A DNA stretch of 64,000 bases from Candidatus Kapaibacterium sp. (lineage in GTDB: Bacteria > Bacteroidota > Ignavibacteria > Kapaibacteriales > UBA2268), in assembly GCA_026418625.1 (NCBI GenBank), contig JAOABA010000015.1:11017-75016 (forward strand), in the 5' to 3' direction. The notes under the pieces were generated by a model. That model did not search any database. It had not been told where the DNA came from and saw nothing but the letters and a program-made list of their open reading frames with translations. Shown piece after piece: positions 1 to 64,000 of this stretch. The translations under genes were made by a program, and so were the position numbers. How positions within the stretch are numbered: position 1 is the first letter of the stretch; every line of letters begins with the position of its first letter.

Positions 1-1764
1 ATGAGTAGCGTTCCTTCGGGTCGTATAAATGGTCAAATTGCACCTAAAACTGGAAATTGGTATGAAGGTGCTGTTGGTGACACACTTGCTTTGACTAATA
101 AGCTCGTTACAATACCTACTACATCTCCTATAACCATAAATATTGAATTCGAAAATAATGGAGCAAGCGGAAAAGTAAAGACAAAAATTGTTTCAACTCA
201 GAATTTCAGCGGTTTGAAATTAAGAATAGTAATTGTCGAAAAAGAGCATTATTATGAAAATGCAGGTAATAATGGTGAAAAACTCTTCCCCGATATCGCT
301 CGTGTTATGCTTCCCGACCACAATGGCACTACTGTCAATCTTCAAGCAAATGTCGAACAAAATTTTGAATTCGATTATAACCTTAAACCAGAAGTAAATT
401 TTGAATTGAAAGCAGTTGTTTTCCTGCAAGATGATAATACTAAGGAAATACTCCAATCTGGTGTCGTATTCAAAAAGCCTACAATAACATTGAGTGCAAC
501 TGGTGCTTTACTTAAAGTTGGAGATCAAGCTAATCCATTTGTAAAAACATACTCTCTTGAGAATGGCGGAGCTTCTGATGTATCATTTAATTTTAAGGCT
601 GAAAAAACAGCCAGAACCCCAGCTGATTGGAATGCTGTTGTTAACAACGCTGGTCCTATAGTCGTCCCTGCTGGAGGAAAAGCAGATATTAACTTGACTT
701 TTACTCCCGGTTCAACTCCCGGTATTGGTGATGCTTACATTGTTGCTACAAAGACCGATGACCCAAATTCGAAATTGACCTCGAACAATATCACAATGCT
801 ATCATCAAATATTCAGTCTATTCATGTCAATGACAATGAATCAACCTATGACATAAATCCAGCTATTATGGTAGGTCATCAACCGTTTGACTACATTAAC
901 TTAAAACCATCCGAATTTGTAGAGCTTGGTAATGACCTAAAAAATTTAAAATATTTAATTTGGAGCACAGGCGCAGGGAACCAATTTAATGCCGCTCAAG
1001 CAAGTTTTCTGACAACAATTGTCAATAAAAATGTTAATACTATGGTTGTTGGAAATCTTTCAGTGGCTTCACTTAGTAGTGCAAATGCACTTGGATTATT
1101 TGGTGTTGAATATCTTGGATGGAATATGGAAGGTTATGGTTATTCTCCTTACACAGTTTGGCTTGCTGGTATCGAGGGTGAAGAAATTTCAGAATTTCTT
1201 GGAACAAATGTTCAGGGAAGTTTAAAGAGCTACCTCTTACCGGTTCTAAAAATTATTGATAATAATACTGATCCTATTCTCCGATTCAGAAGCGACGGAA
1301 GATATGTAAATTGGAAAAACAGAACTGATACTGTCAACATAAAGGGTGAAAATGCAATTATTGCAGCAAAATATTCTTTTGGAGATAATAGAAGAATCAT
1401 TATGGGGTTCACCCCGTTCGTTTTTGTCAATCAATCTCAAAGGGATGAGTTTATAAGAAGAGCAGTTCAATGGCTGGAATTAGGAGCATTAAGTGTTGAT
1501 AATGATCTTTTGTCAAATAATGATATTATTCTAACACCAAACCCTGCGAGTGATTATTTGAAGCTTGATTTAGCTACTCTGAGTGCTTCAAATGTTAATA
1601 TTTCGATTATTGATATGCTTGGTAATAAGGTTATATCTCAATTTTTTGATGAAATGGGAATATCAGAAGTAATTGATGTTTCAGGTTTAGCTTCTGGAAG
1701 CTATATACTGCAATTAGTCTCAGGTAAAAATCAAATTACAAAACCTTTTGTAATTGTTAAATAA
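1..1764 (+). CDS. Secreted protein with a type IX secretion (T9SS) C-terminal sorting domain. The 5' end is cut off by the window edge, so the true start is upstream.
   Basis: Open frame from base 1 with no start codon. The last ~80 aa (LTPNPASDYLKLDL...GSYILQLVSGKNQITKPFVIVK) match the Por/T9SS C-terminal domain pattern. A terminator hairpin follows the stop. Confidence 0.6.
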   Translation: MSSVPSGRINGQIAPKTGNWYEGAVGDTLALTNKLVTIPTTSPITINIEFENNGASGKVKTKIVSTQNFSGLKLRIVIVEKEHYYENAGNNGEKLFPDIARVMLPDHNGTTVNLQANVEQNFEFDYNLKPEVNFELKAVVFLQDDNTKEILQSGVVFKKPTITLSATGALLKVGDQANPFVKTYSLENGGASDVSFNFKAEKTARTPADWNAVVNNAGPIVVPAGGKADINLTFTPGSTPGIGDAYIVATKTDDPNSKLTSNNITMLSSNIQSIHVNDNESTYDINPAIMVGHQPFDYINLKPSEFVELGNDLKNLKYLIWSTGAGNQFNAAQASFLTTIVNKNVNTMVVGNLSVASLSSANALGLFGVEYLGWNMEGYGYSPYTVWLAGIEGEEISEFLGTNVQGSLKSYLLPVLKIIDNNTDPILRFRSDGRYVNWKNRTDTVNIKGENAIIAAKYSFGDNRRIIMGFTPFVFVNQSQRDEFIRRAVQWLELGALSVDNDLLSNNDIILTPNPASDYLKLDLATLSASNVNISIIDMLGNKVISQFFDEMGISEVIDVSGLASGSYILQLVSGKNQITKPFVIVK

Positions 1765-1939: not shown

Positions 1940-2830
1940 AACATTTTAAAGTCATACTGAACGAAGTGAAGCATCTTTTTTAAATTTTAGAATAATTAAG
2001 TCTAAACTTTGCGTTCTTTATGAATCCTCTGCGTCCTTTGCGTGAAATTCTTTTTATTTCTCGCAGAGTTCGCAAAGTCACCCGCAGAGTTCGCAGAGAT
2101 TTTTTTGCTTACATTTTTCAATGAACATTTTTTGAATGAGAAACACTTATTTCAAATCATAATGGATTCTTCAAAAGTTCGATTCTTAAAATGACCAGAA
2201 ATATAATTACTTCAAACATTTCTTTCTAATTTTTTAGAATAATTATGTTTAAAACTCTGCGTTCTCTTTGAATCCTCTGCGTCCTTTGCGCGAAATTCTT
2301 TTTATTTCTCGCAGAGTTCGCAAAGTCACCCGCAGAGTCCGCAGAGATTTTTTTGCTTACATTTTTCAATGAACATTTTTAAAATTGAAACACTTATTTC
2401 AAATCATAATGGATTCTTCAAAAGTTCGATTCTTAAAATGACCAGAAATATAATTACTTCAAATATTTATTTCCTTTTTTTATTAATTTAGTTTAAAACT
2501 CTGCGTTCTCCTTGAATCCTCTGCGCCCTTTGCGTGAAATTCTTTTTATTTCTCGCAGAGTTTGCAGATTTTTTTTTCTTACATTTTTCAATGAACATTT
2601 TTTGAATAAGAAACACCTATTTCAAATTATAATAGGACCTTCCAAACTTTTTTTGTCAGGTTGACAAAGAAAAATAATTACTTCAAATATTTTTCCCAAT
2701 TTTTAGAATAATATGTTTAAAACTCTGCGTTCTCTTTAAATTCTCTGCGTCCTTTGCGTGAAATTCTTTTTATTTCTCGCAGAGTTCGCAAAGTTTTTTA
2801 AGAACTTCAGATTTTTACTTAAGAGTTGAA
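1940..2830. repeat. Tandem array of about 3.6 copies of a ~245-bp structured repeat, here called orientation A. It fills the gap between two convergent genes.
   Basis: Units start near 1983, 2228, 2476 and 2700 and are over 90% identical across most of their length. Each unit carries nested CTTTGCG/CGCAAAG and CTCTGCG/CGCAGAG inverted repeats, ending in CGCAGAG + attttttt. The same family recurs inverted at 52030-52925 and degenerate at 31729-31900. Confidence 0.85.
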
Positions 2831-8941: not shown

Positions 8942-8998
8942 TTACTTCGTCAATTCTAATTCTTAATTATAATTTTAACGAAACTATAGCTTTAAATA

Positions 8999-10003
8999 AT
9001 GGGATTATTCGATAAATTTAAGGAAAAAATTGCTTCTGCAGTTCAATCAACTACTGAAGCCCTTGGTTTTAATAAAGTTCAGAAAGGGTTAGAGAAAACA
9101 CGGTCAAACTTCTTTCAAAAATTTCAATCAATACTCGGCATCGGTAGAAAAATTGACCAATCACTTTTGAATGACATTGAGGATATATTAATTTCATCTG
9201 ATATTGGTATTAAATCCACTGAAAAAATTATCAAAGCTTTAAAGGAAAGAATTAAAAAAGAAGGTTTCGAGGACTCAAGTGATGTCATACTTATCTTAAA
9301 GGAAGAAATCCAAAAGATACTCGTAGAATCGCCGTCTGCCAATGTAGATAGAGAATATAAAATTGATGAAAATAATAAGCCTCACACAATTTTAGTAATT
9401 GGCGTGAATGGTGTTGGTAAGACAACAACTATCGGGAAACTTGCTTATAACTATAAACAGGTTGGGAGGAAAGTTCTTATCGGTGCGGCAGATACTTTCA
9501 GAGCCGCTGCAAACGAACAATTGGAAATTTGGGCTGAAAGAGCGGGTGTTCCTATTGTGCAGCAAAAGCAAGGCGCCGACCCAGCATCTGTTGCATACGA
9601 TACTCTTAATTCAGCTATCTCTAAAGGTTTCGATGTAGTTATTATTGACACAGCTGGAAGACTACACAATAAAACGAATCTAATGGCAGAGCTTGAAAAA
9701 ATTTCGAGGGTTATGAAAAAACTTAAAGCTGATGCTCCAAACGACGTTTTTCTTGTTCTTGATGCAACAACTGGTCAAAATGCTATTCAACAGGCTAAGG
9801 AATTTTCTAAAGTTGCTCAAATTACTGGTATTATATTAACAAAGTTAGACGGCACTGCAAAGGGAGGCGTTGTCATACCTATCGCTGATGAACTTGGAAT
9901 CCCTGTCCGATATATTGGTGTAGGAGAAAAAATTGATGATTTGCAGGTTTTCGACCCAGTGCTTTTCGTTGAAGCATTATTTGATAATAATGAAACAAAC
10001 TAA
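8999..10003 (+). CDS. ftsY: Signal recognition particle receptor FtsY.
   Basis: SRP GTPase NG domain: GVNGVGKTTTIGKLA, DTFRAAA, DTAGR, TKLDG. The N-terminal acidic domain is short. Confidence 0.9.
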   Translation: MGLFDKFKEKIASAVQSTTEALGFNKVQKGLEKTRSNFFQKFQSILGIGRKIDQSLLNDIEDILISSDIGIKSTEKIIKALKERIKKEGFEDSSDVILILKEEIQKILVESPSANVDREYKIDENNKPHTILVIGVNGVGKTTTIGKLAYNYKQVGRKVLIGAADTFRAAANEQLEIWAERAGVPIVQQKQGADPASVAYDTLNSAISKGFDVVIIDTAGRLHNKTNLMAELEKISRVMKKLKADAPNDVFLVLDATTGQNAIQQAKEFSKVAQITGIILTKLDGTAKGGVVIPIADELGIPVRYIGVGEKIDDLQVFDPVLFVEALFDNNETN

Positions 10004-10014
10004 ACATATTAATT

Positions 10015-11310
10015 ATGAAAGTTAATTCAAAATATAGATTTGTTCCTTCGAATGGAAAAAATCAATTAAAAAATAATGAAGTAATTTATTCAAAAACTAT
10101 TCTTCCAAACGGATTGAAAATTATTTCGGAAGAAATAAAAACAGCAAGCACATTTGCACTTGGTATTTTTATTAATGCTGGTTCAAATCGTGATTACAAA
10201 AATCGTGATGGTTTAGCCCATTTCGTTGAGCATGCCTCCTTCAGAAAAACAAGAAAAATTTCAGGAAGAAAACTGAACACAGCCTTTGAATCAATCGGTG
10301 CTTATACAAACGCTTTTACCACAAAAGAAGTTACCTGCTATTATGTTAGAGCTATGCAAGAGCATTTTAAGCCTTGTGTTAGATTATTATCAGAAATAAT
10401 TCTCTATCCTGTTTATCTCGATAAAGACATTGAAAAAGAGAGAGCCATAATAATGGAAGAGATTAAATCCTATGAAGATGAGCCTGAAGAAGTCATTTTT
10501 GATTATGGAGACATAACATTATTCGACAAGCACCCTTTATCTCATCCTATTGTTGGAAATCAGAAATCAGTCAAACAAATTCTTTCAATTGATATACAAA
10601 ATTTTCATAATCAGTTTTATTCACCCAATAACATAGTCATTTCTTATGCCGGACCGCTTGAACATAATAAATTAGTGGATATAGTGTGGCAGTTCTTTTA
10701 TAATTCACCCAAAAACGAAAACGACTTTACCGAAATTTTAGATTTCTCTAATTTAGGGAAAGAGCCCACCACAAGAATATACAAAAAAAGGTTTAACCAA
10801 ACTCATTTACTTTTGAATAGAGCAGTTGAAGGAATGAATTCAAATGACCGGTATAAAATTTCAGCCCTCAACTTCATTCTTGGCGAAGGATTAAGCTCAC
10901 GTTTGCATAAAAAACTGAGAGAAGATAAAAGCTTGGTTTATACTGTTTACTCATCTCTTCAGCTTTTTAAAACTATTGGTTCTCTATCAATTTATGCTGC
11001 TGGAGAGAAAAATAAATATGAGGAAATAAAATCTAACATCGAAAATGAGCTTAATAATTTAGCTGAAAATGGCATTACCAAACTTGAATTGAAAATTGCC
11101 AAAGAACAACTAAAATCGAATACCATTATGGCATTGGAAAGCCTTTCAGCCAGAATACAAAATCTCGCTAAATCCGAATTGACTCTTGGAAGAAATGAGT
11201 CTATTAAAGAAATTATTGATAATATAGACTCAATAACACAAGATGAATTAAATTATCTTTCAAATATCTATTTTCATCCGGAAAAATGGAATAAAATAAT
11301 TTTTATTTGA
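10015..11310 (+). CDS. M16-family (pitrilysin/insulinase-like) zinc peptidase.
   Basis: Inverted zinc motif HFVEHASF (HxxEH) with downstream glutamates. Length is typical of an M16 subunit. Starts 12 nt after ftsY. Confidence 0.8.
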   Translation: MKVNSKYRFVPSNGKNQLKNNEVIYSKTILPNGLKIISEEIKTASTFALGIFINAGSNRDYKNRDGLAHFVEHASFRKTRKISGRKLNTAFESIGAYTNAFTTKEVTCYYVRAMQEHFKPCVRLLSEIILYPVYLDKDIEKERAIIMEEIKSYEDEPEEVIFDYGDITLFDKHPLSHPIVGNQKSVKQILSIDIQNFHNQFYSPNNIVISYAGPLEHNKLVDIVWQFFYNSPKNENDFTEILDFSNLGKEPTTRIYKKRFNQTHLLLNRAVEGMNSNDRYKISALNFILGEGLSSRLHKKLREDKSLVYTVYSSLQLFKTIGSLSIYAAGEKNKYEEIKSNIENELNNLAENGITKLELKIAKEQLKSNTIMALESLSARIQNLAKSELTLGRNESIKEIIDNIDSITQDELNYLSNIYFHPEKWNKIIFI

Positions 11311-11353
11311 TTTTTTTTGTTATTTTGCTATAAAAATAATTAATGAGGGAAAA

Positions 11354-11944
11354 ATGAATGTTGTCTTGGTTATTATTGTTATGCTTTTTTTATTTATTTC
11401 TTGCAACAATGAAAAAGAAGATAGCATTGAATTAACGCCAGATGAAGCAAAAGAGTATTTAGATTTGGGTGAGGCAATTGTTAAAGAATCTTTTGATAGT
11501 TTGCAGACTAATATTATCCGTGCTATCAAGGAAACAGGAATTAAGGGAGCTTTAAAATACTGCAGTTTGAATGCTCATCCTATTATCTATCATCTTGAAA
11601 AGAAAAAGAATGTTAAAATTCGCAGAGCCAGTCAGAAATTTCGTAACCCAGCCAATCAACCTGATAGTATGGAAAATTCTATAATAGATATCTATGCTGA
11701 TTTGTTGAGTAAGGGAGAAAAAACAGAACCAATAATTAGAACTGTTAAAAAAGAGATTCATTACTTTAAACCTATCATTGTAAAAGATTTATGCCTTAAT
11801 TGTCACGGCAAAGTTGGTGAAGAAATAACAGAGGAAAACTATAAAGTCATTACGGAGTTATATCCTTTGGATAATGCAACGGGTTACAAACAAGGAGATT
11901 TGAGAGGGATTTGGCACATTGTTGCTAAATACACCAAAAAATAA
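11354..11944 (+). CDS. Small secreted DUF3365-like protein with a CxxCH heme c binding motif.
   Basis: N-terminal signal or lipoprotein-like sequence (LFLFISCNN). CLNCHG motif near the C-terminus. Overall resemblance to the Tll0287/DUF3365 sensor fold, judged by eye. Confidence 0.5.
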   Translation: MNVVLVIIVMLFLFISCNNEKEDSIELTPDEAKEYLDLGEAIVKESFDSLQTNIIRAIKETGIKGALKYCSLNAHPIIYHLEKKKNVKIRRASQKFRNPANQPDSMENSIIDIYADLLSKGEKTEPIIRTVKKEIHYFKPIIVKDLCLNCHGKVGEEITEENYKVITELYPLDNATGYKQGDLRGIWHIVAKYTKK

Positions 11945-13171
11945 CTACTTAAACCTTATCGCTTGGATTGTATTTATTTTGGTTGCTATATATGAGGGAA
12001 TTAACGTTGATATTAGTGCTAATGTTAAAGAAATGATTATTACTGTAATATAATGCCAAATGTCAATGCTAACTGGTAAGGTGTCAAGAAAATAAACTTC
12101 ACCACGTAAATTAATCAAACCAAAATTTTTTTGTAAAAAAGTGAATAATAGTGCGAGAGAACAACCAATAAGATTGCCAATAACTGCTATTGATAAGCCC
12201 TGAAAAATAAAAATTTTAATAATATCTTTCGAAGTAACACCCAATGCTCTGAGAATGCCTATTGAGCGAGTTTTCTCCACTACAGTTATCAGAAGTATAG
12301 TAAGAATATTTGAAACAGCAACTAAACTGATTAATCCCAGCACAATAGGTATAGGGTCTTTTTGTAGTTCAATCCAAGCAAAAGCTGAACTGTTCATTTC
12401 GAAGACTGTTAATGTGTAATATTTGTATCCTATCACAGATTGAATTTTTTCAGATAGAGATTGCACAAGATTCAAGTCGCTTACCATTATTTCCAAAGAT
12501 GTCGCACTATTTTCAGGGATTTGAAAAACTCTATATGCTGTAAAAAAAGGGATGAAAACTATTGCATCATCATATTTAGCAAAACCTGTTTGATAAATTC
12601 CGATTATTTTAAATTTATCAATATCAGGATAGGCGAGGTTTCCAGCGGGTGATTCTCTCATCGAATAAAGAATCAAATTATCACCAATTGATACATTCAA
12701 CTTCTCCGACATTCTTTTGCTAATAACAATTTCTTTAGAAAATTTATCAGAAAATTCAAAAGTCCCCTTAATTAAGTTGGATTTAATATTAGTAATGTCA
12801 TTTTTTGAATCATATCCTTTAATCAGAACTGCTTCCAAAGTATTTTTTGATTTAAGTAAGCCTTGCCTTTCGATAGATGGATGTAGTGAGCTAATTCCGT
12901 GAATGAATCTTCTTAAATTATTAATTATCTCAGGTGTGTTATTAATAATTTTTCTTTCGAATGCATTAACAGTAATATGCGAGTTAAACTTGACAGCATT
13001 TTCAAATAATGCTTTTTCAAATCCTTGCAACACTGACAAAGAAATTATCAAAGCCATTGAGCCCAAAGTAATGCTAATAAGGGCAACAACTCTAACAAAT
13101 CCCAAAAAAGACCTATCTTCTGCTGGCTTAGATAACCTTTTTGAAATAAACTTATAAACTTTAAAATCCAT
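11945..13171 (-). CDS. FtsX-family ABC transporter permease of the LolC/E-MacB type.
   Basis: One N-terminal transmembrane helix, a large periplasmic domain, and three C-terminal helices with the FtsX signature (GILRALG...). No ATPase gene sits next to it. Confidence 0.75.
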   Translation of the reverse strand: MDFKVYKFISKRLSKPAEDRSFLGFVRVVALISITLGSMALIISLSVLQGFEKALFENAVKFNSHITVNAFERKIINNTPEIINNLRRFIHGISSLHPSIERQGLLKSKNTLEAVLIKGYDSKNDITNIKSNLIKGTFEFSDKFSKEIVISKRMSEKLNVSIGDNLILYSMRESPAGNLAYPDIDKFKIIGIYQTGFAKYDDAIVFIPFFTAYRVFQIPENSATSLEIMVSDLNLVQSLSEKIQSVIGYKYYTLTVFEMNSSAFAWIELQKDPIPIVLGLISLVAVSNILTILLITVVEKTRSIGILRALGVTSKDIIKIFIFQGLSIAVIGNLIGCSLALLFTFLQKNFGLINLRGEVYFLDTLPVSIDIWHYITVIIISLTLALISTLIPSYIATKINTIQAIRFK

Positions 13172-31533: not shown

Positions 31534-31728
31534 ATTTAAACCATATCATTAAATGGAAATTTAGTTTCATAAATGTTAGCTGAAATGATTGTAAAGGTTC
31601 CATTTAAAAAAGGCTTTCAAACTTCTCTTACCAGACTGACCGAAAAAAATTTATATCATACGCAATTCATTTTTTATTATTATTTCAAGTTAAATTATAA
31701 GTTGCTTTTTTTTGATTTAATTATTTCT

Positions 31729-52029: not shown

Positions 52030-52925
52030 CCAAACTTTTCTAAAAAATTGGGATGAGATATTTGAAGATATTTTTTTCTTGCTCATTCCTACAAATGAAG
52101 TATAGAAAAATCCATTAAGATTTGAAATAGGTGTTTTTCATTCAAAAAATGTTCATTGAAAAATGTAAGCAAAAAAAATCTCTGCGAACTCTGCGTTTTA
52201 CTTTGCGAACTCTGCGAGGAATAAAAAGAATTTCACGCAAAGTACGCAGGGGATTCAAAGAGAACGCAGAGTTTTAAATATAATTATTCTAAAAAATTGG
52301 AAAGAGATATTTGAAGTAATTATTTTTTTTTGTCAACCTGACAAACGTAGCTTGGAAGGTGCCATTATAATTTGAAATAAGTGTTTCTTAATCAAAAAAT
52401 GTTCATTGAAAAATGTAAGCAAAAAATCTCTAGGAACTTTGCGGGTGACTTAGCGAACTCTACGAGAAAAAAAAAAGAGTTTCACGCAGAGAACGCAGAG
52501 GATTCAAAGAGAACGCAAAGTTTTAAATATAATTATTCTAAAAAATTTAGAAAGAGATATTTGAAGTGATTATTTTTATTGGTTATTCTTACAAACGTAG
52601 CTTGGAAGGTGCCATTATGATTTGAAATATATGTTTTACTTTTAAAAATGTTCATTGAAAAATGTAAGCAAAAAAAATCTCTGCGATCTTTGCGGGTGAC
52701 TTTGCGAACTCTGCGAGAAATAAAAAGAATTACACGCAAAGGTCGCAGAGGATTCAAAGAGAACGCAAAGTTTTAAAATTAATTATTCTAAAGAATGGAA
52801 AGAAATATTTTAAGCAATTATATTTCTCGGTCATTCTGACAAACGAAGTTTGGAAGAATCCATTAAGCAAAAAAATATCTTAAACCTTTGGTTTTGCCTA
52901 ACACTTTAGAATCTAAAATTTTTTG
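52030..52925. repeat. Second tandem array (about 3.6 copies) of the ~245-bp repeat family, in the reverse-complement orientation relative to 1940-2830.
   Basis: Units ...ttcattgaaaaatgtaagcaaaaaaaatctctgcgaactctgcg...cgcagagttttaaatataattattctaaaaaatt... are the reverse complement of the first array. Lies between convergent genes. Confidence 0.85.
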
Positions 52926-57204: not shown

Positions 57205-58677
57205 TCAATCTTTTAGAATAGTTCTATAAATTTCATCATACTTTTTCAAGGACTGAGTCCAAGAGGTGTCAATCTGCATTATACGAAGTGCTAAGTCTTC
57301 CCATTCAGTTCTAATTTTAAAAACCTCAAGAGCTGATGCCAAGCTTTTAAACAAACTATCTGGCTTAAAGTCATTAAAGAGAAAGCCGCTGCCATTTGAT
57401 TTGTCAGACAGATAATCTTTAATGAATTCGAGGTTTGCACCGGTTGCTCTTGCTACAGGAACTGTCCCATAAGATAAGGAGGTCAAAGCTTTCCATCCAT
57501 TAGATTCGTATTTTGAAGGAATTAAAAAGATGTCAGAACCAGCAAAGATTTGGTGCAAGGTGGCATTATCCAAGCCAATTTTCAATGCAAATTTTGTTGG
57601 ATAATCTTTAGCAACTTTTTTTAATTTATTTTTTATTTCATTATCCCCATCAGCAATCATAACAATTTTCAGATCCTGACTTAATATTTTAGGAATTGCT
57701 TCAAGGAAAATAGAAATCCCACTACTTTCAGTTAAATTACTGACCATACCAATGAGCGGTTCATCACCATATTCCAATCCGAATTTGTTTAATAACTCTT
57801 TTTTATTTGTAACTTTATAACTAAAAAAGTCAGTCTCAAATTTTTGTTTGATATCGTTATCGTGATTGGGTTTCCAAACCCATTGATCAACACCAATATT
57901 CAAACCTAAAGCCTTGCTTTCTTTCTCCATTAAGTTTTTGTTCAAACTATTGCTGTATGTTGAACTTTGCAGAATTTCCTGTAAATATGCCGGGCTATGA
58001 GTTGTTATAAAATCAGCATATTCAATTCCACCCTTGAGGAAGTTAAATTTATTTTTATGAAGAAACTTTGATTTAACATCAGCTGGTAAAAGTGTTTTAT
58101 CGAAAGTATTTTCAGGGAAAACACCCTGATCCTGAAAATTATTAATACTTAATAAAATTTTAGTCCTTTTGAATTTATTTGGAAATAAAACTTTTGCATA
58201 AGCGGCTATCAAGCTCGTTTGCCAGTCATTGCAATGAATTATATCAGGAAACCAACCAAGAATTAAGCAGGTTTCTATCACACTTCTGCAAAAGAAAATG
58301 AATCTTTCGTCATTTTCTGCGATTGGTTTTCCGGTTTTTGGGTCATCGAATACTGCTTTTAATTGATCATAATAACAAAGATTGCAGGTAATATAAGCTT
58401 GAACTTTAGCTCGAGGGTTATTAATTGAGCTTGATTTAACAGTAGCAAGTTCAACCTTGTTGCCAATAGGTATTGGCATATCTCTCAATCTATTAATTTC
58501 GTGTATTCTGTTTTTTCTCTCTGATATTACCCCATATTTTGGGAACATTACCCTAACGTCATTACCAAATTCCCGCATTGCAAGGGTGTAGGAATGTGAT
58601 ATATCACCAAGTTCACCAACTCTGATAAAAGGAAAGACTTCACTCGTTACAAACAAAATACTTAAACTTTTTGCCAT
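57205..58677 (-). CDS. glgA: Glycogen/starch synthase (GT5).
   Basis: N-terminal ILFVTSEVFPFIRVGELGDI (compare KILFVSSEVAPFAKTGGLADV). C-terminal FLIPSKYESNGWKALTSLSYGTVPVARATG. Confidence 0.85.
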   Translation of the reverse strand: MAKSLSILFVTSEVFPFIRVGELGDISHSYTLAMREFGNDVRVMFPKYGVISERKNRIHEINRLRDMPIPIGNKVELATVKSSSINNPRAKVQAYITCNLCYYDQLKAVFDDPKTGKPIAENDERFIFFCRSVIETCLILGWFPDIIHCNDWQTSLIAAYAKVLFPNKFKRTKILLSINNFQDQGVFPENTFDKTLLPADVKSKFLHKNKFNFLKGGIEYADFITTHSPAYLQEILQSSTYSNSLNKNLMEKESKALGLNIGVDQWVWKPNHDNDIKQKFETDFFSYKVTNKKELLNKFGLEYGDEPLIGMVSNLTESSGISIFLEAIPKILSQDLKIVMIADGDNEIKNKLKKVAKDYPTKFALKIGLDNATLHQIFAGSDIFLIPSKYESNGWKALTSLSYGTVPVARATGANLEFIKDYLSDKSNGSGFLFNDFKPDSLFKSLASALEVFKIRTEWEDLALRIMQIDTSWTQSLKKYDEIYRTILKD

Positions 58678-58930
58678 TGTTTTTTATAGGAAATTTAAGA
58701 AATTGAATTTATTCAACTACAAAAATAATCAATTTTTCCTGATTTTTTTCATTTTGTTTTAATTAAGTCCTTAATAGATTTTGTTTATATGCTAATAATA
58801 ATTCTCAATCCAGCTTTTCTAAAGCATTTATATAATAAATATTTATTTAATTTCATTTTCTTCAATATTTATTCACTTTTTTTTATTGTATCACGTCAAT
58901 CATTTTGATGAAAAAAATAACGGAAAAAAA

Positions 58931-59755
58931 ATGGATGGCTATGCAGATTTACATCTTCATACTACATATTCTGATGGGGTTTTTACCCCAGAACAACTCC
59001 TGAAAAAAGTTTCTGAAGTTGGTATATCAGCTATTAGTATAACAGACCACGACTCAGTTGATGGTTATATTCAAGCACTAAAATATCTCGATAAATACAA
59101 CATCCAGCTTATTCCGGGCATTGAACTTAGTTGCATTGAAAATGGAAAGGAAATTCATTTATTAGGCTATAATATTGACCCAGATAATAAAATTCTTAAA
59201 AACCACCTTCAAGATTTTCGAAATGGCAGATATAAAAGAGCTGAACAAATTCTGCAAAAATTAAAAAACCTGCAAAGACCTGTGAATTTTTCTTTAGTCC
59301 TCGAAAAAGCCGGAGAAGCTCCAATAACACGTCCTCATATTGCTATGGCTATGACTGAATTGGGTTATACATCTAATCTTAAAGAAGCCTTTGTTCTTTA
59401 TCTCGGCGATGATAAACCTGCTTACGTTTCAAAAGCAAACTTTTCAATTGAACGTGGTATTAAACTGATTAACCAGTCTGGCGGTTTAGCTGTTTTGGCT
59501 CATCCCGCCCGAATGATACAGCCTGACACTTTGTATAAGCTAATAAAATCAGGTCTTGATGGCATTGAAATAATCCATCCCACTCACGATTTAGCCACTC
59601 AGAAATACTATCAATCTATAGCTTCCCAGTATTGGCTTCTTGAAACTGGCGGCTCGGATTTTCACGGAAATCGAGAATATGACGAAGAAAATCTTGGTAA
59701 ATTCATTGTTCCGCTCTCCACCGTTGAATCCATAAAAATTCACTCAGTAAGATAA
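58931..59755 (+). CDS. PHP-domain metal-dependent phosphoesterase.
   Basis: DLHLHTTYSDG motif right after the ATG at 58931. The ORF track's 58886 start adds an unlikely 15-aa leader. Confidence 0.75.
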   Translation: MDGYADLHLHTTYSDGVFTPEQLLKKVSEVGISAISITDHDSVDGYIQALKYLDKYNIQLIPGIELSCIENGKEIHLLGYNIDPDNKILKNHLQDFRNGRYKRAEQILQKLKNLQRPVNFSLVLEKAGEAPITRPHIAMAMTELGYTSNLKEAFVLYLGDDKPAYVSKANFSIERGIKLINQSGGLAVLAHPARMIQPDTLYKLIKSGLDGIEIIHPTHDLATQKYYQSIASQYWLLETGGSDFHGNREYDEENLGKFIVPLSTVESIKIHSVR

Positions 59756-59824
59756 TCCTCTTCAAGTTTATCGGAAATATCCGATAATTAAACTATGTAT
59801 TTTTAGTTTAATTATGATGATCTT

Positions 59825-60700
59825 ATGTCAGTTATTAGTGAAATAATGGAAATTCAGGAATTTGCTACACTTCCTCCGGTGGCAGCAAAAGTATTAATGT
59901 TACTCGAAAACGATGATGTTGATATTCGTGATATTTCTCACGTTATCGAAACTGATGCATCATTAACGATGAAATTGCTCAGAGTAGCAAATTCACCGAT
60001 TTATGCTATCAGGACTCAGATAAGTAGCATCCATCAGGCAATTTTAACTCTCGGATTGAACAGATTAACAAATATAGTCATTGGTGTTTCTATTTTTTCG
60101 CGTTTTTTGATGAACACTCAAAAACAAGCAATGGAATTTATGGAAAAATTCTGGTGGCATTCTTCCTGCACTGGTGTAGTAGCGAAAGTCTTATCTGGAA
60201 AGCTGAAAAAACAATATAAAGAATACGAATTTATTGGTGGATTGCTCCACGATATCGGTAAGCTGGCTATGGTTCAATACAATTCAGGGTTATACTTAGA
60301 TGTTCTAAGGTTAATCAACGAAGAAAAATATATTGATGTTGATGCCGAAGTAAAAATTTTCGGTGTTGACCATTTGGAAGTCGGTGAGAAAATTTTCCAT
60401 CTCTGGAAACTTCCAGCGGAAATGTCTTATATTGTCTCGCATCACTCTAAAATTGAAGAATTAAACCAATCCCAAGAACTTGTTGCTATAATTAGGGTTG
60501 CCGATTTGCTCTGCGAAATGTGGGGTGCAGAAATTGGCGAGGGCTTGGAGCAAATCAAAATCAGCGAGGATATCTCTTGGAAAATTCTATGTGCAAAAAA
60601 TCCTGATCTCGCTGAAATGGACGTCGAGAAATTCACATTTGATTTAGAAAACGAATTCAAAAAATCGAAAGAGTTCCTAAATCTCCTTGTTCAGGAATAA
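59825..60700 (+). CDS. HDOD-domain signalling protein.
   Basis: HDOD blocks LLRVANSPIYA and GLLHDIGKLAM. Confidence 0.8.
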   Translation: MSVISEIMEIQEFATLPPVAAKVLMLLENDDVDIRDISHVIETDASLTMKLLRVANSPIYAIRTQISSIHQAILTLGLNRLTNIVIGVSIFSRFLMNTQKQAMEFMEKFWWHSSCTGVVAKVLSGKLKKQYKEYEFIGGLLHDIGKLAMVQYNSGLYLDVLRLINEEKYIDVDAEVKIFGVDHLEVGEKIFHLWKLPAEMSYIVSHHSKIEELNQSQELVAIIRVADLLCEMWGAEIGEGLEQIKISEDISWKILCAKNPDLAEMDVEKFTFDLENEFKKSKEFLNLLVQE

Positions 60701-61015
60701 TAGATTTTTTAGTCTGCCATAACAAATAACAACAACTTGCATTAGTTTTATCAATTATATTTGAAAAACAAGCAAGGTTGTTTGTTCCACCTTTTTGAAT
60801 GTCATTCCATTAAAAAATAATCTTTTGAAAAATTATAAGCTTTTAGTAAGTTTGATAGTTATTAATAATTTATATAATAAGTAAAAAAAAATTGCTATAA
60901 TAAATTGGGTTAATAAAAAAGTAGATTTATAAAGTTTGAGCAATAAAATTATTTTTTTTGAATTGAGTATAATTGGGTGTTATAGGTTATTGTAAAACAA
61001 CACGTGTTAAAAAAA

Positions 61016-61987
61016 ATGGCAAAGACATCATTTTGGGATATAATAGAAAAAACAATAGAAAAAGTTGGGACACCCCTTTCTGCAAAAGAAATATGGGAGA
61101 AAGCAAATGAACTTGGAACACTTGGTGACTTTTCAACTACTGGTAAGACTCCTTGGGCGACTATAGCTGCATATTGCTATACAGATATCAATAAGAATGG
61201 TGACAACTCAATTATAATTCAAACTAGTGAAAGGCCTGCTCAGTTCTTTTTAAGACGCCTTGCAAAAAAAATAGACATACATAAAGCCCAAAATCAAAAA
61301 GACACAAAAATTACAAAAAAGGAAAAGCTAGAAACTAAAAAATTCAATGAAAGAGACCTACATCCACTGTTGGTAGCCTATGCTTTTGGAGACAGTCATT
61401 TCAAAGCAAACCTAAAGACAATTTTCCACGAATACTCTTCAAAAGCTACAAAAGGACAAAATGAGTGGTTACATCCTGACTTAGTTGGCGTGTATTTTCC
61501 ATTTCGTGACTACAAGCCTGAAACACTTGAAATCCAAAACCATTTGTCAATAACATCTATAAAGCTGTTTTCTTTTGAATTGAAAGTTTCCTTGAACTTT
61601 GGCAACTTACGACAATCATACTTTCAAGCCGTTTCTAATTCAAGCTGGGCAAATGAAGGGTACTTAGTGACACTTTACATTGACGATGACCCGACTTTTA
61701 AAGATGAAGTAAGACGACTTAACAACGCATTTGGAATTGGAATAATAAGACTAAACCCTGAGAATATTTTTGAGAGTGAAATACTTTTCCCTTCAAGAAT
61801 AAATCAAGAAATTGACTGGGATTCTGTAAACCGACTTGCAAACGAAAACTCGGACTTTAATGACTTTTTAAAATTGATAACAGAGGACTGTAAACTTGGT
61901 AAAGTTAAAAGTCAATACGACAAGGTTATGAAAATGGAAGAACTAACAAAATATATCAAGGACAAAGGAATAAATAACGCAGAATAA
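61016..61987 (+). CDS. HARE-HTH domain protein fused to a putative PD-(D/E)xK nuclease-like C-terminal domain.
   Basis: N-terminus SFWDIIEKTIEKVGTPLSAKEIWEKANELGTL...TTGKTPWATIAAYCYTDINKNGDNSIIIQTSERPAQFFLRRL fits the HARE-HTH pattern. Downstream, HPDLVGV is followed ~35 aa later by SFELKV (PD...E-x-K). Codon usage differs from neighbouring genes. Confidence 0.6.
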   Translation: MAKTSFWDIIEKTIEKVGTPLSAKEIWEKANELGTLGDFSTTGKTPWATIAAYCYTDINKNGDNSIIIQTSERPAQFFLRRLAKKIDIHKAQNQKDTKITKKEKLETKKFNERDLHPLLVAYAFGDSHFKANLKTIFHEYSSKATKGQNEWLHPDLVGVYFPFRDYKPETLEIQNHLSITSIKLFSFELKVSLNFGNLRQSYFQAVSNSSWANEGYLVTLYIDDDPTFKDEVRRLNNAFGIGIIRLNPENIFESEILFPSRINQEIDWDSVNRLANENSDFNDFLKLITEDCKLGKVKSQYDKVMKMEELTKYIKDKGINNAE

Positions 61988-62077
61988 CACGAGTTTCTCG
62001 ATAGGTGGGTTAACGAACAAATTTGATGTTTTTTTATTCTATTAAGGTCCTTATTTGAAAGTGAAGTGCTCCGAAAT

Positions 62078-62109
62078 CCCCTACTGTTACAAGTGGCAAA
62101 CGTTAGGGG
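62078..62109 (+). other. GC-rich hairpin in the intergenic region between the two candidate nuclease genes.
   Basis: ccccta (62078-62083) pairs with tagggg (62104-62109) around a 20-nt loop. The surrounding 160-nt spacer is noticeably richer in GC than typical intergenic DNA here. Confidence 0.25.
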
Positions 62110-62146
62110 CAACTATCGCACGATACTTTAACAATCAAAATATCGA

Positions 62147-63400
62147 ATGACAAGAAAAGGAAATAGAAGAAACGGACAACCAATTTTAATACGTGACAAT
62201 AAGTCAAACGGTCTTGAACGTATTCCATTGGATGCAAAAACATTTAACGAGGACTGGATACAAAAACTTATTAACAACAACCCAGAAATTTTACCGATTA
62301 ATGAAATTGACTCAGCATTTACTCCAGTAATTTCAATCGGCAGAGAAATTTCAACAACTGCTGGTTACATTGACAATTTATTTATTTCCCCAGAAGGTTA
62401 CTTAACGATTGTAGAAACAAAACTTTGGAGAAATCCTGAAGCAAGACGAGAAGTTGTAGGACAAATTCTTGATTACGCAAAAGAGTTAAACAAATGGAGT
62501 TTTACAGACCTTGACAATGCTGTAAAACTTTACAATCAAACATACAACAAGAATTCTGACGGACTTATAACGACAGTGAAAAAATTCAACGAGCTTGATG
62601 AAGCTGACGAGAGTTATTTCATTGACAACGTGAGCAGAAATTTAAAGCGAGGACGTTTTTTGCTTTTAATCGTTGGTGACGGCATTCGTGAAAGTTTGGA
62701 AGAAATGGTTGAGTATTTGACACAGACACCACAACTTTATTTTACGTTAGCATTAGTTGAGTTACTAGTTTACAAACTCAATCAAGACGATAGTTCACTA
62801 ATTGTTATTCCGCAACTCGTTACGCGGACTAGAGAGATTACGAGAGCAATCGTGAAAATTGAAGGCAGCTATACTGCTGACTTGAAAGTAAGCATTAAAA
62901 CTGACTTAGGAACAGAAAGCACTAAGCAACAAAATCAAAGTTACAAGCGGCTTACTATTACAGCAGAGGACTTTTTTGAACAACTTGCATATAACACAAA
63001 CAAAGAAACAGTTGACTTTGCACAACAAGTAATCAAGGACAGCGAAGAACTTGGACTATACATTGAGTGGAACTCTGGCAGTTTCAGTATTAAACTTCCC
63101 GACCCACAAGGAAGTGGAATAAAAATTGGAATTGTAAACATTGACAGAGGAGGACTTTTTTACTTGGGTTATTCAAGAGGACAGTTTGAGAAATTACAAC
63201 TGCCATTAGAAATCTGTTACAGTTTTGCTGCCGACACAGCTAAACTACTTCCGGGCATTAAACAACGTCCTGACAAACCACACATTTGGAACAAGTATTC
63301 AACCATTGGCGACCTCAAAAAAGTTTATCCTCAATTTATGGAAAGAGTAAAGAAATATATTGATGACATTATCAACGAAGGACAGAAAATCAGCCACTGA
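62147..63400 (+). CDS. Protein with a RecB/Cas4-like PD-(D/E)xK nuclease domain near the N-terminus and a ~280-aa C-terminal region of unknown function.
   Basis: GYIDNLFISPEGYLTIVETKLWRNPEARREVVGQILDYAKE gives D...E-x-K followed by Q-x-x-x-Y, the RecB-family arrangement. Codon usage is atypical for the window. Confidence 0.55.
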   Translation: MTRKGNRRNGQPILIRDNKSNGLERIPLDAKTFNEDWIQKLINNNPEILPINEIDSAFTPVISIGREISTTAGYIDNLFISPEGYLTIVETKLWRNPEARREVVGQILDYAKELNKWSFTDLDNAVKLYNQTYNKNSDGLITTVKKFNELDEADESYFIDNVSRNLKRGRFLLLIVGDGIRESLEEMVEYLTQTPQLYFTLALVELLVYKLNQDDSSLIVIPQLVTRTREITRAIVKIEGSYTADLKVSIKTDLGTESTKQQNQSYKRLTITAEDFFEQLAYNTNKETVDFAQQVIKDSEELGLYIEWNSGSFSIKLPDPQGSGIKIGIVNIDRGGLFYLGYSRGQFEKLQLPLEICYSFAADTAKLLPGIKQRPDKPHIWNKYSTIGDLKKVYPQFMERVKKYIDDIINEGQKISH

Positions 63401-63556
63401 CATATGTTTCACATCAGGTTGGGTAACTTGATTCAAATGATAATTTATTGGTTAATTAAATCGCAGATCTTTTTTTTGACAAATTATGCTAAAAAATCCG
63501 CCACTAAGCCAAGAAGTTAATGGTCAATCAAAATATTAAAACAAATAATCAGCTTT

Positions 63557-64000
63557 ATGCCAAAAATAACATTTATATTTATTATAATTTCGTATTTGAC
63601 GGTTAACTTATTTGGACAACAATGTGATTCTTGTAAAAAGGAATTTGATATCCTATTCGTAATTAAAGAAAAGCCGAAAATCAGCCAAACGGATTTGGAG
63701 AACAGTTGGCAGATTACTCAAAAACTCTATGATCTTGGTTACACTGATTACATTGACAGTGTCGCCAATCGAACTTCATTTGTATCTCATAGTCTGACCA
63801 GAACATTTTCTGATATCTGCATAAAGGCTGGAGGCAATTTAGGCGTTGATTATTATTTAAGCTATTTGCTGTTTACCAATGGTTCGGCTGAGGAAGAACG
63901 TTCCTTTGCTCTTGAGAGATTATTTGTGAAATTTCCGGAAATTGTTCTGGAGAAAATAGGGAATGACTATGATTTACTTAACGATTTAACTTGGGGCTTC
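63557..64000 (+). CDS. Hypothetical secreted or lipoprotein-like protein, 3'-truncated by the window edge and absent from the supplied ORF track.
   Basis: The ATG at 63557 opens a frame that runs to the window end without a stop. Translated by hand: MPKITFIFIIISYLTVNLFGQQCDSCKKEF... with a hydrophobic N-terminus. Confidence 0.4.
   Translation, partial: MPKITFIFIIISYLTVNLFGQQCDSCKKEFDILFVIKEKPKISQTDLENSWQITQKLYDLGYTDYIDSVANRTSFVSHSLTRTFSDICIKAGGNLGVDYYLSYLLFTNGSAEEERSFALERLFVKFPEIVLEKIGNDYDLLNDLTWGF

Follow-up and report, generated by a model that had tools for sequence, protein, structure and literature searches.

Two foreign genes for predicted nucleases behind an HDOD gene: probably an islet of single-gene modules and not a two-gene system

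Downstream of an HDOD gene (PF08668) in a Candidatus Kapaibacterium genome lie two same-strand open reading frames, here called A and B, 159 nt apart. A sequence-only reading of this DNA had taken them for an acquired two-gene cassette, and the locus thus raises the question of whether A and B form one defence system or are independent genes that have come to lie side by side. The whole stretch of DNA analysed, 64,000 nucleotides, is referred to as the window. Both co-oriented genes were found as proposed, and their parts and surroundings are collected in Table 1. The start of A was placed at an ATG, which gives the 323-aa product annotated by NCBI, the GTG at 61004 being a mechanical ORF start.

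Table 1. Features of the A/B locus (window positions; aa, residue numbers of the respective protein)
Feature	Position	Strand	Remarks
Gap between HDOD gene and A	60701-61015	.	315 nt, GC 0.21
Host intergenic DNA, outside the acquired genes	60701-60978	.	AT-rich; similarity to closest relative (L123)
Left junction of the insertion	between 60935 and 60978		
Conserved 5' leader of A	60979-61015	+	travels with A; blastn similarity starts at 60979
Gene A	61016-61987	+	323 aa, HrgA/DUF511 family
A, HARE-HTH winged helix	aa ~5-85, nt 61028-61270	+	
A, linker	aa ~86-108		disordered, Lys-rich
A, PD-(D/E)xK nuclease	aa ~110-260		followed by C-terminal helical tail
A, catalytic codons	61349-61585	+	E112 61349-51; P154-D155 61475-80; E188-L-K190 61577-85
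Junction spacer A/B	61988-62097	.	conserved in neither family's loci
Conserved 5' leader of B	62098-62146	+	travels with B; similarity starts at 62098
Gene B	62147-63400	+	417 aa
B, NucS/EndoMS-like PD-(D/E)xK nuclease domain	aa ~35-228, nt 62249-62830	+	
B, catalytic codons	62345-62476	+	E67 62345-47; D76 62372-74; E90-T-K92 62414-22; Q106 62462-64; Y110 62474-76
B, linker	aa 230-269		disordered
B, C-terminal alpha/beta domain	aa 270-417, nt 62954-63397		poorly conserved, no assigned family
Next ORF, cut by window end	63557-64000	+	NAC fraction 0.26, GC 0.345

Both genes are foreign to the host genome. This is shown by their codon signature, by their absence from the host's closest relative and by a synonymous divergence across phyla lower than that of host genes. 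A and B have pooled NAC codon fractions of 0.56 and 0.67, whereas the other genes of the window give 0.247±0.053, with no value above 0.366; GAC/(GAC+GAT) reaches 0.76 and 0.81 (background 0.25), the AAC share 0.50 and 0.59 (0.24) and the CAA share 0.90 and 0.85 (0.69), with T3 z-scores of about -3 for both genes. The deviating codon usage noticed by the sequence-only reading is thus real, but the higher GC reported along with it is not: at 0.343 (z 0.1) for A and 0.363 (z 0.8) for B, GC content lies at the background level (0.340±0.028) and was rejected as a marker of foreignness. Nor is the AT-rich gap of some 300 nt ahead of A special, although it exists, as its GC content is ordinary for the intergenic DNA of the window (range 0.17-0.31). 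In the closest relative (locus L123, HDOD protein 93% identical), synteny covers window positions 57638-60709 at 83% nucleotide identity and ends at 60709; positions 60813-60934 are 75% identical to the spacer that follows its HDOD gene, and neither A nor B is present. On the right, the next ORF has host-like codon usage and so bounds the foreign segment; it has no Pfam match and is absent from L123. B and its Chitinophagales homologue are separated by a dS of 0.36, compared with 0.8-1.2 for host genes and those of the host's own close relative. As A and B carry the same unusual codon signature, they may have been transferred jointly from an unsampled donor.

The N-terminal HARE-HTH and the PD...ELK block that had been recognised in A both stand. 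The former matches PF05066 with 41.6 bits (cutoff 25.9). As for the latter, 50 divergent family representatives (34-50% identical to A) all retain E112, P154, D155 and E188, and at least 90% of them retain K190. The pair had been described as matching no named system, which does not hold for A, whose close homologues carry the NCBI name HrgA and whose architecture had already been described. A equals HrgA (DUF511) in length and in its arrangement of an N-terminal winged helix and a PD-(D/E)xK domain, and the two align end to end: BLASTP against a Helicobacter heilmannii 'HrgA protein' gives 32% identity over aa 3-315 (E 1e-53), and tblastn reaches a coverage of 97%. The motifs ERxLHPLL, PD, FELK and YFQAxSNSSWANEGYLV are common to both, the corresponding FQAVSNSSWAxEGYLV block of A lying within the nuclease fold. 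Judged from these alignments, A is a full-length, bona fide member of the HrgA/DUF511 family. PF04373 (DUF511) matched neither A nor the HrgA-annotated proteins of Helicobacter and Vibrio, the model apparently being missing from the Pfam copy used, and A had no match in PADLOC. The nuclease prediction for HrgA, a protein known since 2002, dates from 2010-2012.

The A clade is tightly conserved, with 85-92% amino acid identity across phyla among Bacteroidota-related lineages, saturated dS and a dN/dS of 0.03, the level of housekeeping genes. For an immune gene, such cross-phylum identity at saturated dS is out of the ordinary. In Helicobacter pylori, hrgA takes the place of the hpyIIIR restriction gene, the two being mutually exclusive alleles exchanged via homologous recombination; HrgA was predicted to combine a wHTH with a PD-(D/E)xK domain, with no methylase neighbour conserved across the family (PMC3045609). 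A differs from that case in belonging to this conserved clade and in sitting in a Kapabacteria chromosome next to an unrelated nuclease gene and not an M.HpyIII-type methylase. A second likeness is to the HARE-HTH-REase fusions of R-M and Dnd neighbourhoods, proposed as modification-discriminating nucleases (Aravind & Iyer 2012, as presented in PMC4738411 and PMC10853773). So far as these secondary accounts describe the fusions, A likewise joins a HARE-HTH to a restriction-endonuclease fold and its family likewise recurs near type I R-M genes and methyltransferases, but the window is without a methyltransferase, hsd or dnd gene and the reading of modified bases by A is a prediction.

A tblastn search of the 64-kb window with HsdR, HsdM, HsdS and two methyltransferases as probes found no methyltransferase or hsd gene. 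As its neighbours (the HDOD gene, B and an ORF of unknown function) include no cognate methyltransferase, A was rejected as a classical type II R-M endonuclease; for the same reason it would most plausibly be a solitary, type-IV-like restriction nuclease, dependent on modification or on DNA context. Its HARE-HTH winged helix, a fold also found in the delta subunit of RNA polymerase, would bind DNA, with a predicted ability to discriminate modified bases, and would position the C-terminal PD-(D/E)xK endonuclease. The type IV (modification-dependent) activity is predicted from a solitary nuclease joined to a HARE-HTH that is itself predicted to read modifications. Elsewhere, relatives of A may serve as accessory nucleases of type I R-M loci.

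B is harder to place. The D-x(n)-E-x-K plus QxxxY core that had been seen in it proved solid, as none of 42 close and 61 distant and diverse family members departs from E67, D76, E90-x-K92 and Q106xxxY110. The nuclease fold extends to about aa 228, so that the unassigned C-terminal domain measures about 150 aa and not the approximately 280 aa without a family first estimated. The B family comprises more than 4,000 clusters at 90% identity and has no Pfam model, and B itself has no Pfam or NCBIfam match. Despite the motifs, it was rejected as a member of the Cas4/RecB family, there being no Pfam or PADLOC membership and no cas or helicase gene next to it. Stand-alone PD-(D/E)xK effectors with a sensor, such as Shedu SduA, Hachiman HamA and Can2/Card1, offer another comparison, but B matches none of their PADLOC models in sequence; its accessory domain, at the C-terminus, is neither a CARF nor the N-terminal domain of Shedu, and no helicase partner accompanies it. 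The sole PADLOC match of B is to the single-gene candidate PDC-S11 (44 bits; aa 33-197 align with positions 23-160 of the 358-position profile). All ten distant relatives of B that were searched (10/10) likewise have this profile as their sole match, with 25-51 bits, always partially and in the N-terminal nuclease region; coverage over B and these relatives runs from about 23 to 160, at most 215, of the 358 positions, leaving the C-terminal half unmatched. From the low scores and the restriction of the match to the nuclease half, the B family is a sister family of PDC-S11 rather than part of it.

The best structural match of B is NucS/EndoMS, with which it shares a RecB-like nuclease fold bearing the E, D, ExK and QxxxY residues, and one could ask whether B is a mismatch or branched-DNA endonuclease, and A a conserved DNA-processing factor, both serving repair or recombination. 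The housekeeping-level dN/dS of A and the position of some homologues among housekeeping genes would fit. However, only the nuclease core (about 104 residues) aligns with the 226-residue NucS, whose N-terminal dimerisation/DNA-binding domain is unmatched by the approximately 34 aa upstream of the nuclease in B. A helical insertion (aa 119-168) and a C-terminal domain of its own further set B apart; it scores 13 bits against the NucS equivalog NF003270 of NCBIfam (cutoff 216), and the Pfam model NucS_C is matched, marginally (E 0.006), by 2 of 61 B-family members. B was accordingly rejected as a NucS/EndoMS, its gene being moreover foreign and non-syntenic. Both A and B are patchy, compositionally foreign, missing from the closest relative and non-syntenic, neither belongs to a housekeeping family with conserved synteny, and both families recur near R-M, CBASS, McrBC, GmrSD and integrase genes. 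A repair role for either gene, although the best of the alternatives, seems unlikely.

R-M, defence or mobile contexts recur around both families, in favour of this side of the sequence-only reading. Among 127 flanking proteins from 73 A-family loci, raw counts are 14 for type I HsdR, 8 for SMODS/CBASS cyclases, 2 each for McrBC, GmrSD and N6_Mtase, and 1 for BrxL; a Clostridium butyricum homologue adjoins two methyltransferases and a restriction endonuclease, and a Vibrio conjugative plasmid carries the order hsdR-SprT-HrgA. The upstream neighbours of the B family are highly variable (87 Pfam families among 95 proteins). N6_Mtase (5), Eco57I (4) and MmeI (3), again as raw counts, are found next to B-family genes, as are HSDR_N, AbiEii, GmrSD, nSTAND3, PARG, integrases and recombinases. 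Several homologues of A and B stand alone among housekeeping genes, and the defence-island signal is to that extent partial. In the accessible literature, no experiment was found that shows either HrgA or the B family to be active as a nuclease or against phages, and sequence searches of PDB chains with both proteins and both family profiles returned nothing useful.

Alternatively, A and B could be selfish or addictive nuclease genes, or remnants of disrupted R-M systems, kept by their own movement or by post-segregational killing and not by benefit to the host. The allelic exchange of hrgA and hpyIIIR in H. pylori (PMC3045609), the movement of both modules as single genes with short leaders and their occurrence on plasmids and on contigs called viral are consistent with this. 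Yet the locus has no transposase or integrase, and a repeat search found direct and inverted repeats around A and B at chance level only, with no att-like or IS-like ends; the window has no Rfam match and no tRNA gene. The catalytic residues are under strong purifying selection, no homologue of either gene was found in 50,697 deposited phage genomes, and PHROGs gave no meaningful match for either. Selfish maintenance seems, on balance, rather improbable, somewhat more so than a repair role.

What remains is the question of whether A and B belong together, a HARE-HTH protein that reads the state of the DNA working with a second nuclease. The genes lie close together on one strand, the spacer between them has no terminator-like site on the + strand (the terminator/sigma-70 scan was uninformative, Bacteroidota-type promoters falling outside it), they share their atypical codon signature and both are missing from the nearest relative. 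Against this stands the distribution of the two families. By tblastn, no A-like gene was found in B-family loci (0/94) and no B-like gene in A-family loci (0/108, with more than 1.5 kb of downstream sequence available in 100 of the 108), so that the families do not co-occur in any of the 202 sampled loci. Many of the A-family loci from the viral collection hold distant relatives with 35-42% identity across the nuclease domain only, and a scan of the genome collection with one protein as query yielded only 5 loci. DNA homology to relatives also stops at the borders of each gene: blastn similarity to loci of A homologues in other taxa (L006-L011, L018, L020, L021) covers 60979-61996, that of the B module 62098-63398 (90% nucleotide identity to the Chitinophagales locus L001, from 62098 on), and the break falls in the spacer, at 61997-62097. 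Finally, each gene has its own conserved leader and is found without the other, under purifying selection (dN/dS 0.11 for B), in many genomes. Close homologues of A are solitary amid housekeeping genes (L012, L114, L115), lie on a plasmid (L102) or adjoin type I hsdM/hsdS (L006-10, L104-113), as is usual for HrgA genes, which are mostly solitary or beside type I R-M or other defence genes; those of B are solitary (L002, L004, L120-122) or, in L119, lie in one island together with genes for MmeI, a resolvase and a transposase. The two-gene cassette was therefore rejected, and a joint system is very improbable. Equally remote is the idea that A acts chiefly by binding DNA, as a regulator or chromatin-type protein, and that its nuclease-like domain is non-catalytic, given the invariance of E112, D155 and E188, the near-invariance of K190, the FQAVSNSSWAxEGYLV block inside the nuclease fold and the link of the family to R-M loci.

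Since A and B are not neighbours in any of the sampled loci, we favour, as the probable explanation, an islet of two stand-alone genes: two unrelated single-gene nuclease modules, each mobile alone, that have come to lie side by side at a variable site downstream of the HDOD gene. Both genes are acquired and encode predicted PD-(D/E)xK nucleases whose catalytic residues are intact, as had been proposed. We infer a defence role for them; that they cleave DNA, and by what mode they would tell self from non-self, are likewise predictions. B would act as a stand-alone NucS/EndoMS-like PD-(D/E)xK nuclease (RecB-type, QxxxY), whose conserved catalytic half is connected through a flexible linker with a C-terminal domain that evolves fast, putatively a specificity or sensor/regulatory module licensing the cleavage of foreign DNA. 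Tentatively, and with something less than even confidence, the B family could be a new single-gene type of defence, in which a NucS/EndoMS-type core is licensed by a fast-diversifying C-terminal sensor/specificity domain, related to PDC-S11 and distinct from it; cooperation with HrgA at this locus is a lesser possibility.

The finding adds members of known or predicted kinds and does not reveal a new system. A and B, both compact and well conserved, are candidates for biochemical work, and the sequence of HrgA is remarkably constrained. Should both prove active, the locus would show defence islets growing from independently mobile single-gene nucleases.

Genes A and B follow a block of housekeeping genes that ends with the HDOD gene, across a spacer whose low GC content is normal for the window, where intergenic DNA ranges from 0.17 to 0.31. 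The 323-aa product of gene A is identical to an NCBI protein of a Candidatus Kapabacteria MAG, and that of gene B matches an NCBI protein (locus tag N2319_03210) from the same 90.8-kb contig. The window contains no tRNA genes and no Rfam matches, and no hsd or methyltransferase genes were detected in it with the probes used.

Features around genes A and B (window positions)
Feature	Position	Strand	Size	Remark
Glycogen/starch synthase	57205-58677			Housekeeping block upstream of genes A and B
PHP phosphoesterase	58886-59755			Housekeeping block upstream of genes A and B
HDOD protein	59825-60700			Last gene of housekeeping block before spacer
Spacer, HDOD to gene A			315 nt	GC 0.21
Gene A	61016-61987	+	323 aa	ATG start at 61016 preferred
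Gene B	62147-63400	+	417 aa	

The unusual codon usage claimed for these genes in the sequence-only reading is qualitatively correct: GAC, AAC and TAC occur two to three times as often as in the window's other 41 genes. The pooled fraction of such codons (NAC) is 0.56 for gene A and 0.67 for gene B, compared with 0.247±0.053 (maximum 0.366) for the other genes, and the ORF after gene B (63557 onward) is host-like (0.26). The higher GC content also attributed to the pair was not found (z 0.1 and 0.8). Neither gene is present in locus L123, from the nearest host relative found (HDOD 93% identical at the amino acid level; nucleotide identity 83% over 57638-60709), where the HDOD gene is followed by an 840-nt spacer and then by ArsR/DUF169 genes. 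As positions 60813-60934 of the window spacer are still homologous to the L123 spacer, the left junction of the insertion lies at 60935-60978. The synonymous divergence of gene B from a Chitinophagales homologue (dS 0.36), set against that of host genes from the host's close relative (0.8-1.2), implies that gene B was acquired by horizontal transfer. Close homologues of gene A hold ~34-35% GC in hosts of 44-54% GC.

A unit of ~250 bp is repeated in the window, in two tandem arrays of ~3.3 copies each located in ORF-free gaps (1985-2799 and 52038-52856, in opposite orientations) and as a degenerate copy near 31721. It contains CTCTGCG...CGCAGAG inverted repeats and matches no Rfam family; the window has 8 copies of its 21-nt core, against 0 expected by chance. 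Another copy (L123 3205-3325, aligning with window positions 2021-2137 and other copies) is found in the L123 spacer directly behind the HDOD gene, the spot occupied in the window by genes A and B. This repeat might mark a putative recombination or insertion hotspot.

Largely real as an observation, the proposed cassette is not supported as a two-gene system. Relatives of A and B occur together in none of the loci collected, either the 94 with B relatives (5 genome and 80 metagenome loci and 5 viral-collection contigs, plus look-ups) or the 108 with A relatives. DNA similarity to A loci is confined to 60979-61996 and that to B loci to 62098-63398, so that each gene travels together with its own leader of ~40-50 nt, and the intervening stretch of ~100 nt is part of neither. 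Close homologues of gene A lie in Seramator between the SIMPL and RsmF genes, elsewhere between Dus and RhuM, next to a rhomboid gene, on a plasmid of Persicobacter and, in a digester Bacteroidales, upstream of type I hsdM/hsdS; those of gene B are solitary, with housekeeping genes around them, or share an island with an MmeI-type R-M, a resolvase and a transposase. In this digester Bacteroidales (L006-L010, L104-L113), HrgA is the leading gene of a type I R-M locus (~8990-12650, locus numbering) in which hsdM and hsdS are separated by small uncharacterised ORFs and a GIY-YIG gene. Many contigs break off within the hsdS region or close to it, suggesting that the specificity locus varies or shuffles.

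Gene A is a new member of the long-known HrgA family. The HARE-HTH domain recognized in the sequence-only reading is confirmed (PF05066, 41.6 bits, cutoff 25.9), and the "PD...ELK" block corresponds to P154-D155 and E188-L-K190, which, with E112, vary little or not at all among 50 representatives that share just 34-50% identity with A. Close homologues are annotated as HrgA protein, and Helicobacter heilmannii HrgA aligns end to end with gene A (32% identity, E 1e-53) and has all motifs in common with it. In the AF2 model (pLDDT 91.8) a winged helix (aa ~5-85) is followed by a disordered linker rich in Lys, then by a PD-(D/E)xK domain and a tail of helices. Laganeckas et al. (PMC3045609) assigned to DUF511/HrgA a winged helix and a canonical PD-(D/E)xK site, with no positionally conserved methylase alongside. 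This is a large family, with 1,426 clusters (50% identity) at E <= 1e-3, and no solved structure is detectable for it by sequence.

Purifying selection acts on both genes, with a dN/dS of ~0.03 in A and ~0.11 in B; the value for gene A equals that of its housekeeping neighbours, and its synonymous sites are saturated. Within the HrgA clade (gene A and proteins P0122-P0240), protein identity is 85-92% across Kapabacteria, Bacteroidales, Flammeovirgaceae and others, at a dS of 1.3 to above 2 and dN/dS ~0.03. Such constraint is unusual for a mobile, presumed defence gene.

The family of gene B, unnamed and uncharacterised, has a known fold and is familiar in kind. The predicted nuclease core holds: E67, D76, E90-x-K92 and Q106xxxY110 are unchanged in all relatives compared, 42 close and 61 distant. 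Gene B has no Pfam or NCBIfam assignment, and its only library match is the PADLOC candidate PDC-S11 (44 bits, confined to aa 33-197 and to positions 23-160 of the 358 in the profile). Ten distant relatives match it alike (25-51 bits); since these matches are low and partial, the B family is sister to PDC-S11 and falls outside it. Gene B scores below the cutoff of the NucS equivalog model (13 vs 216 bits). In the AF2 model (pLDDT 79), an N-terminal nuclease domain (aa ~35-228) is joined by a disordered linker (230-269) to an unassigned C-terminal alpha/beta domain (270-417), for which fold matches are weak. Among 61 diverse members length is steady (~395-425 aa) and the catalytic half highly conserved, only P320 and G336 reaching 90% conservation in the C-terminal domain. 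In the closest homologue (L001 1276-2526, 92% aa identity, from a Chitinophagales MAG contig of ~2.6x coverage), codon 293 is an in-frame TAG and the deposited protein is 292 aa long; this homologue is either a pseudogene or the product of a sequencing error.

A survey of 127 proteins flanking A-family genes at 73 loci of the IMG/VR collection, where many relatives are distant (35-42% identity over the nuclease domain), returned 14 type I HsdR, 8 SMODS/CBASS cyclases, 2 each of McrBC, GmrSD and N6_Mtase, and 1 BrxL. On a Vibrio conjugative plasmid the gene order is hsdR-SprT-HrgA, and on a Clostridium butyricum megaplasmid HrgA adjoins two methyltransferases and a restriction endonuclease. Neighbours of the B family are very diverse (87 Pfam families among 95 upstream proteins, 80 among 88 downstream) and include R-M methylases, HSDR_N, AbiEii, GmrSD, nSTAND3, PARG, integrases and recombinases. 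These neighbour data, which stand without a background rate, are no more than suggestive of a defence association for the two families. No homologues of either protein were found in 50,697 deposited phage genomes. A large IMG/VR group (L133-L192, contigs classed as viral) encodes HrgA-like nuclease-domain proteins of ~313-315 aa whose alignment to A is limited to aa ~110-300. Their genes directly follow type I HsdR genes (~1000 aa) or adjoin SMODS/CBASS cyclases; these loci are possible defence hotspots carried by prophages or satellites. Downstream of distant B relatives (L098, L100), DUF4268 is found in two cases and DUF7718 in two.

Gene A is a solitary gene for a predicted nuclease with intact catalytic residues, a winged helix and no cognate methylase, and on these grounds its product would most plausibly be a type IV-like nuclease, cutting DNA that bears a feature absent from the host. 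The HARE-HTH winged helix has been proposed to read modified bases (PMC4738411, PMC10853773), with doubts raised as to which base (PMC11037411). Alternatively, gene A may act as an accessory nuclease alongside type I R-M genes where these occur. In gene B, a conserved nuclease of RecB/NucS type would be joined to a variable C-terminal domain, in keeping with the common design of single-gene defence nucleases whose accessory domain sets specificity or gates activity. The most useful leads are the gene B family and the puzzling degree to which HrgA is conserved.
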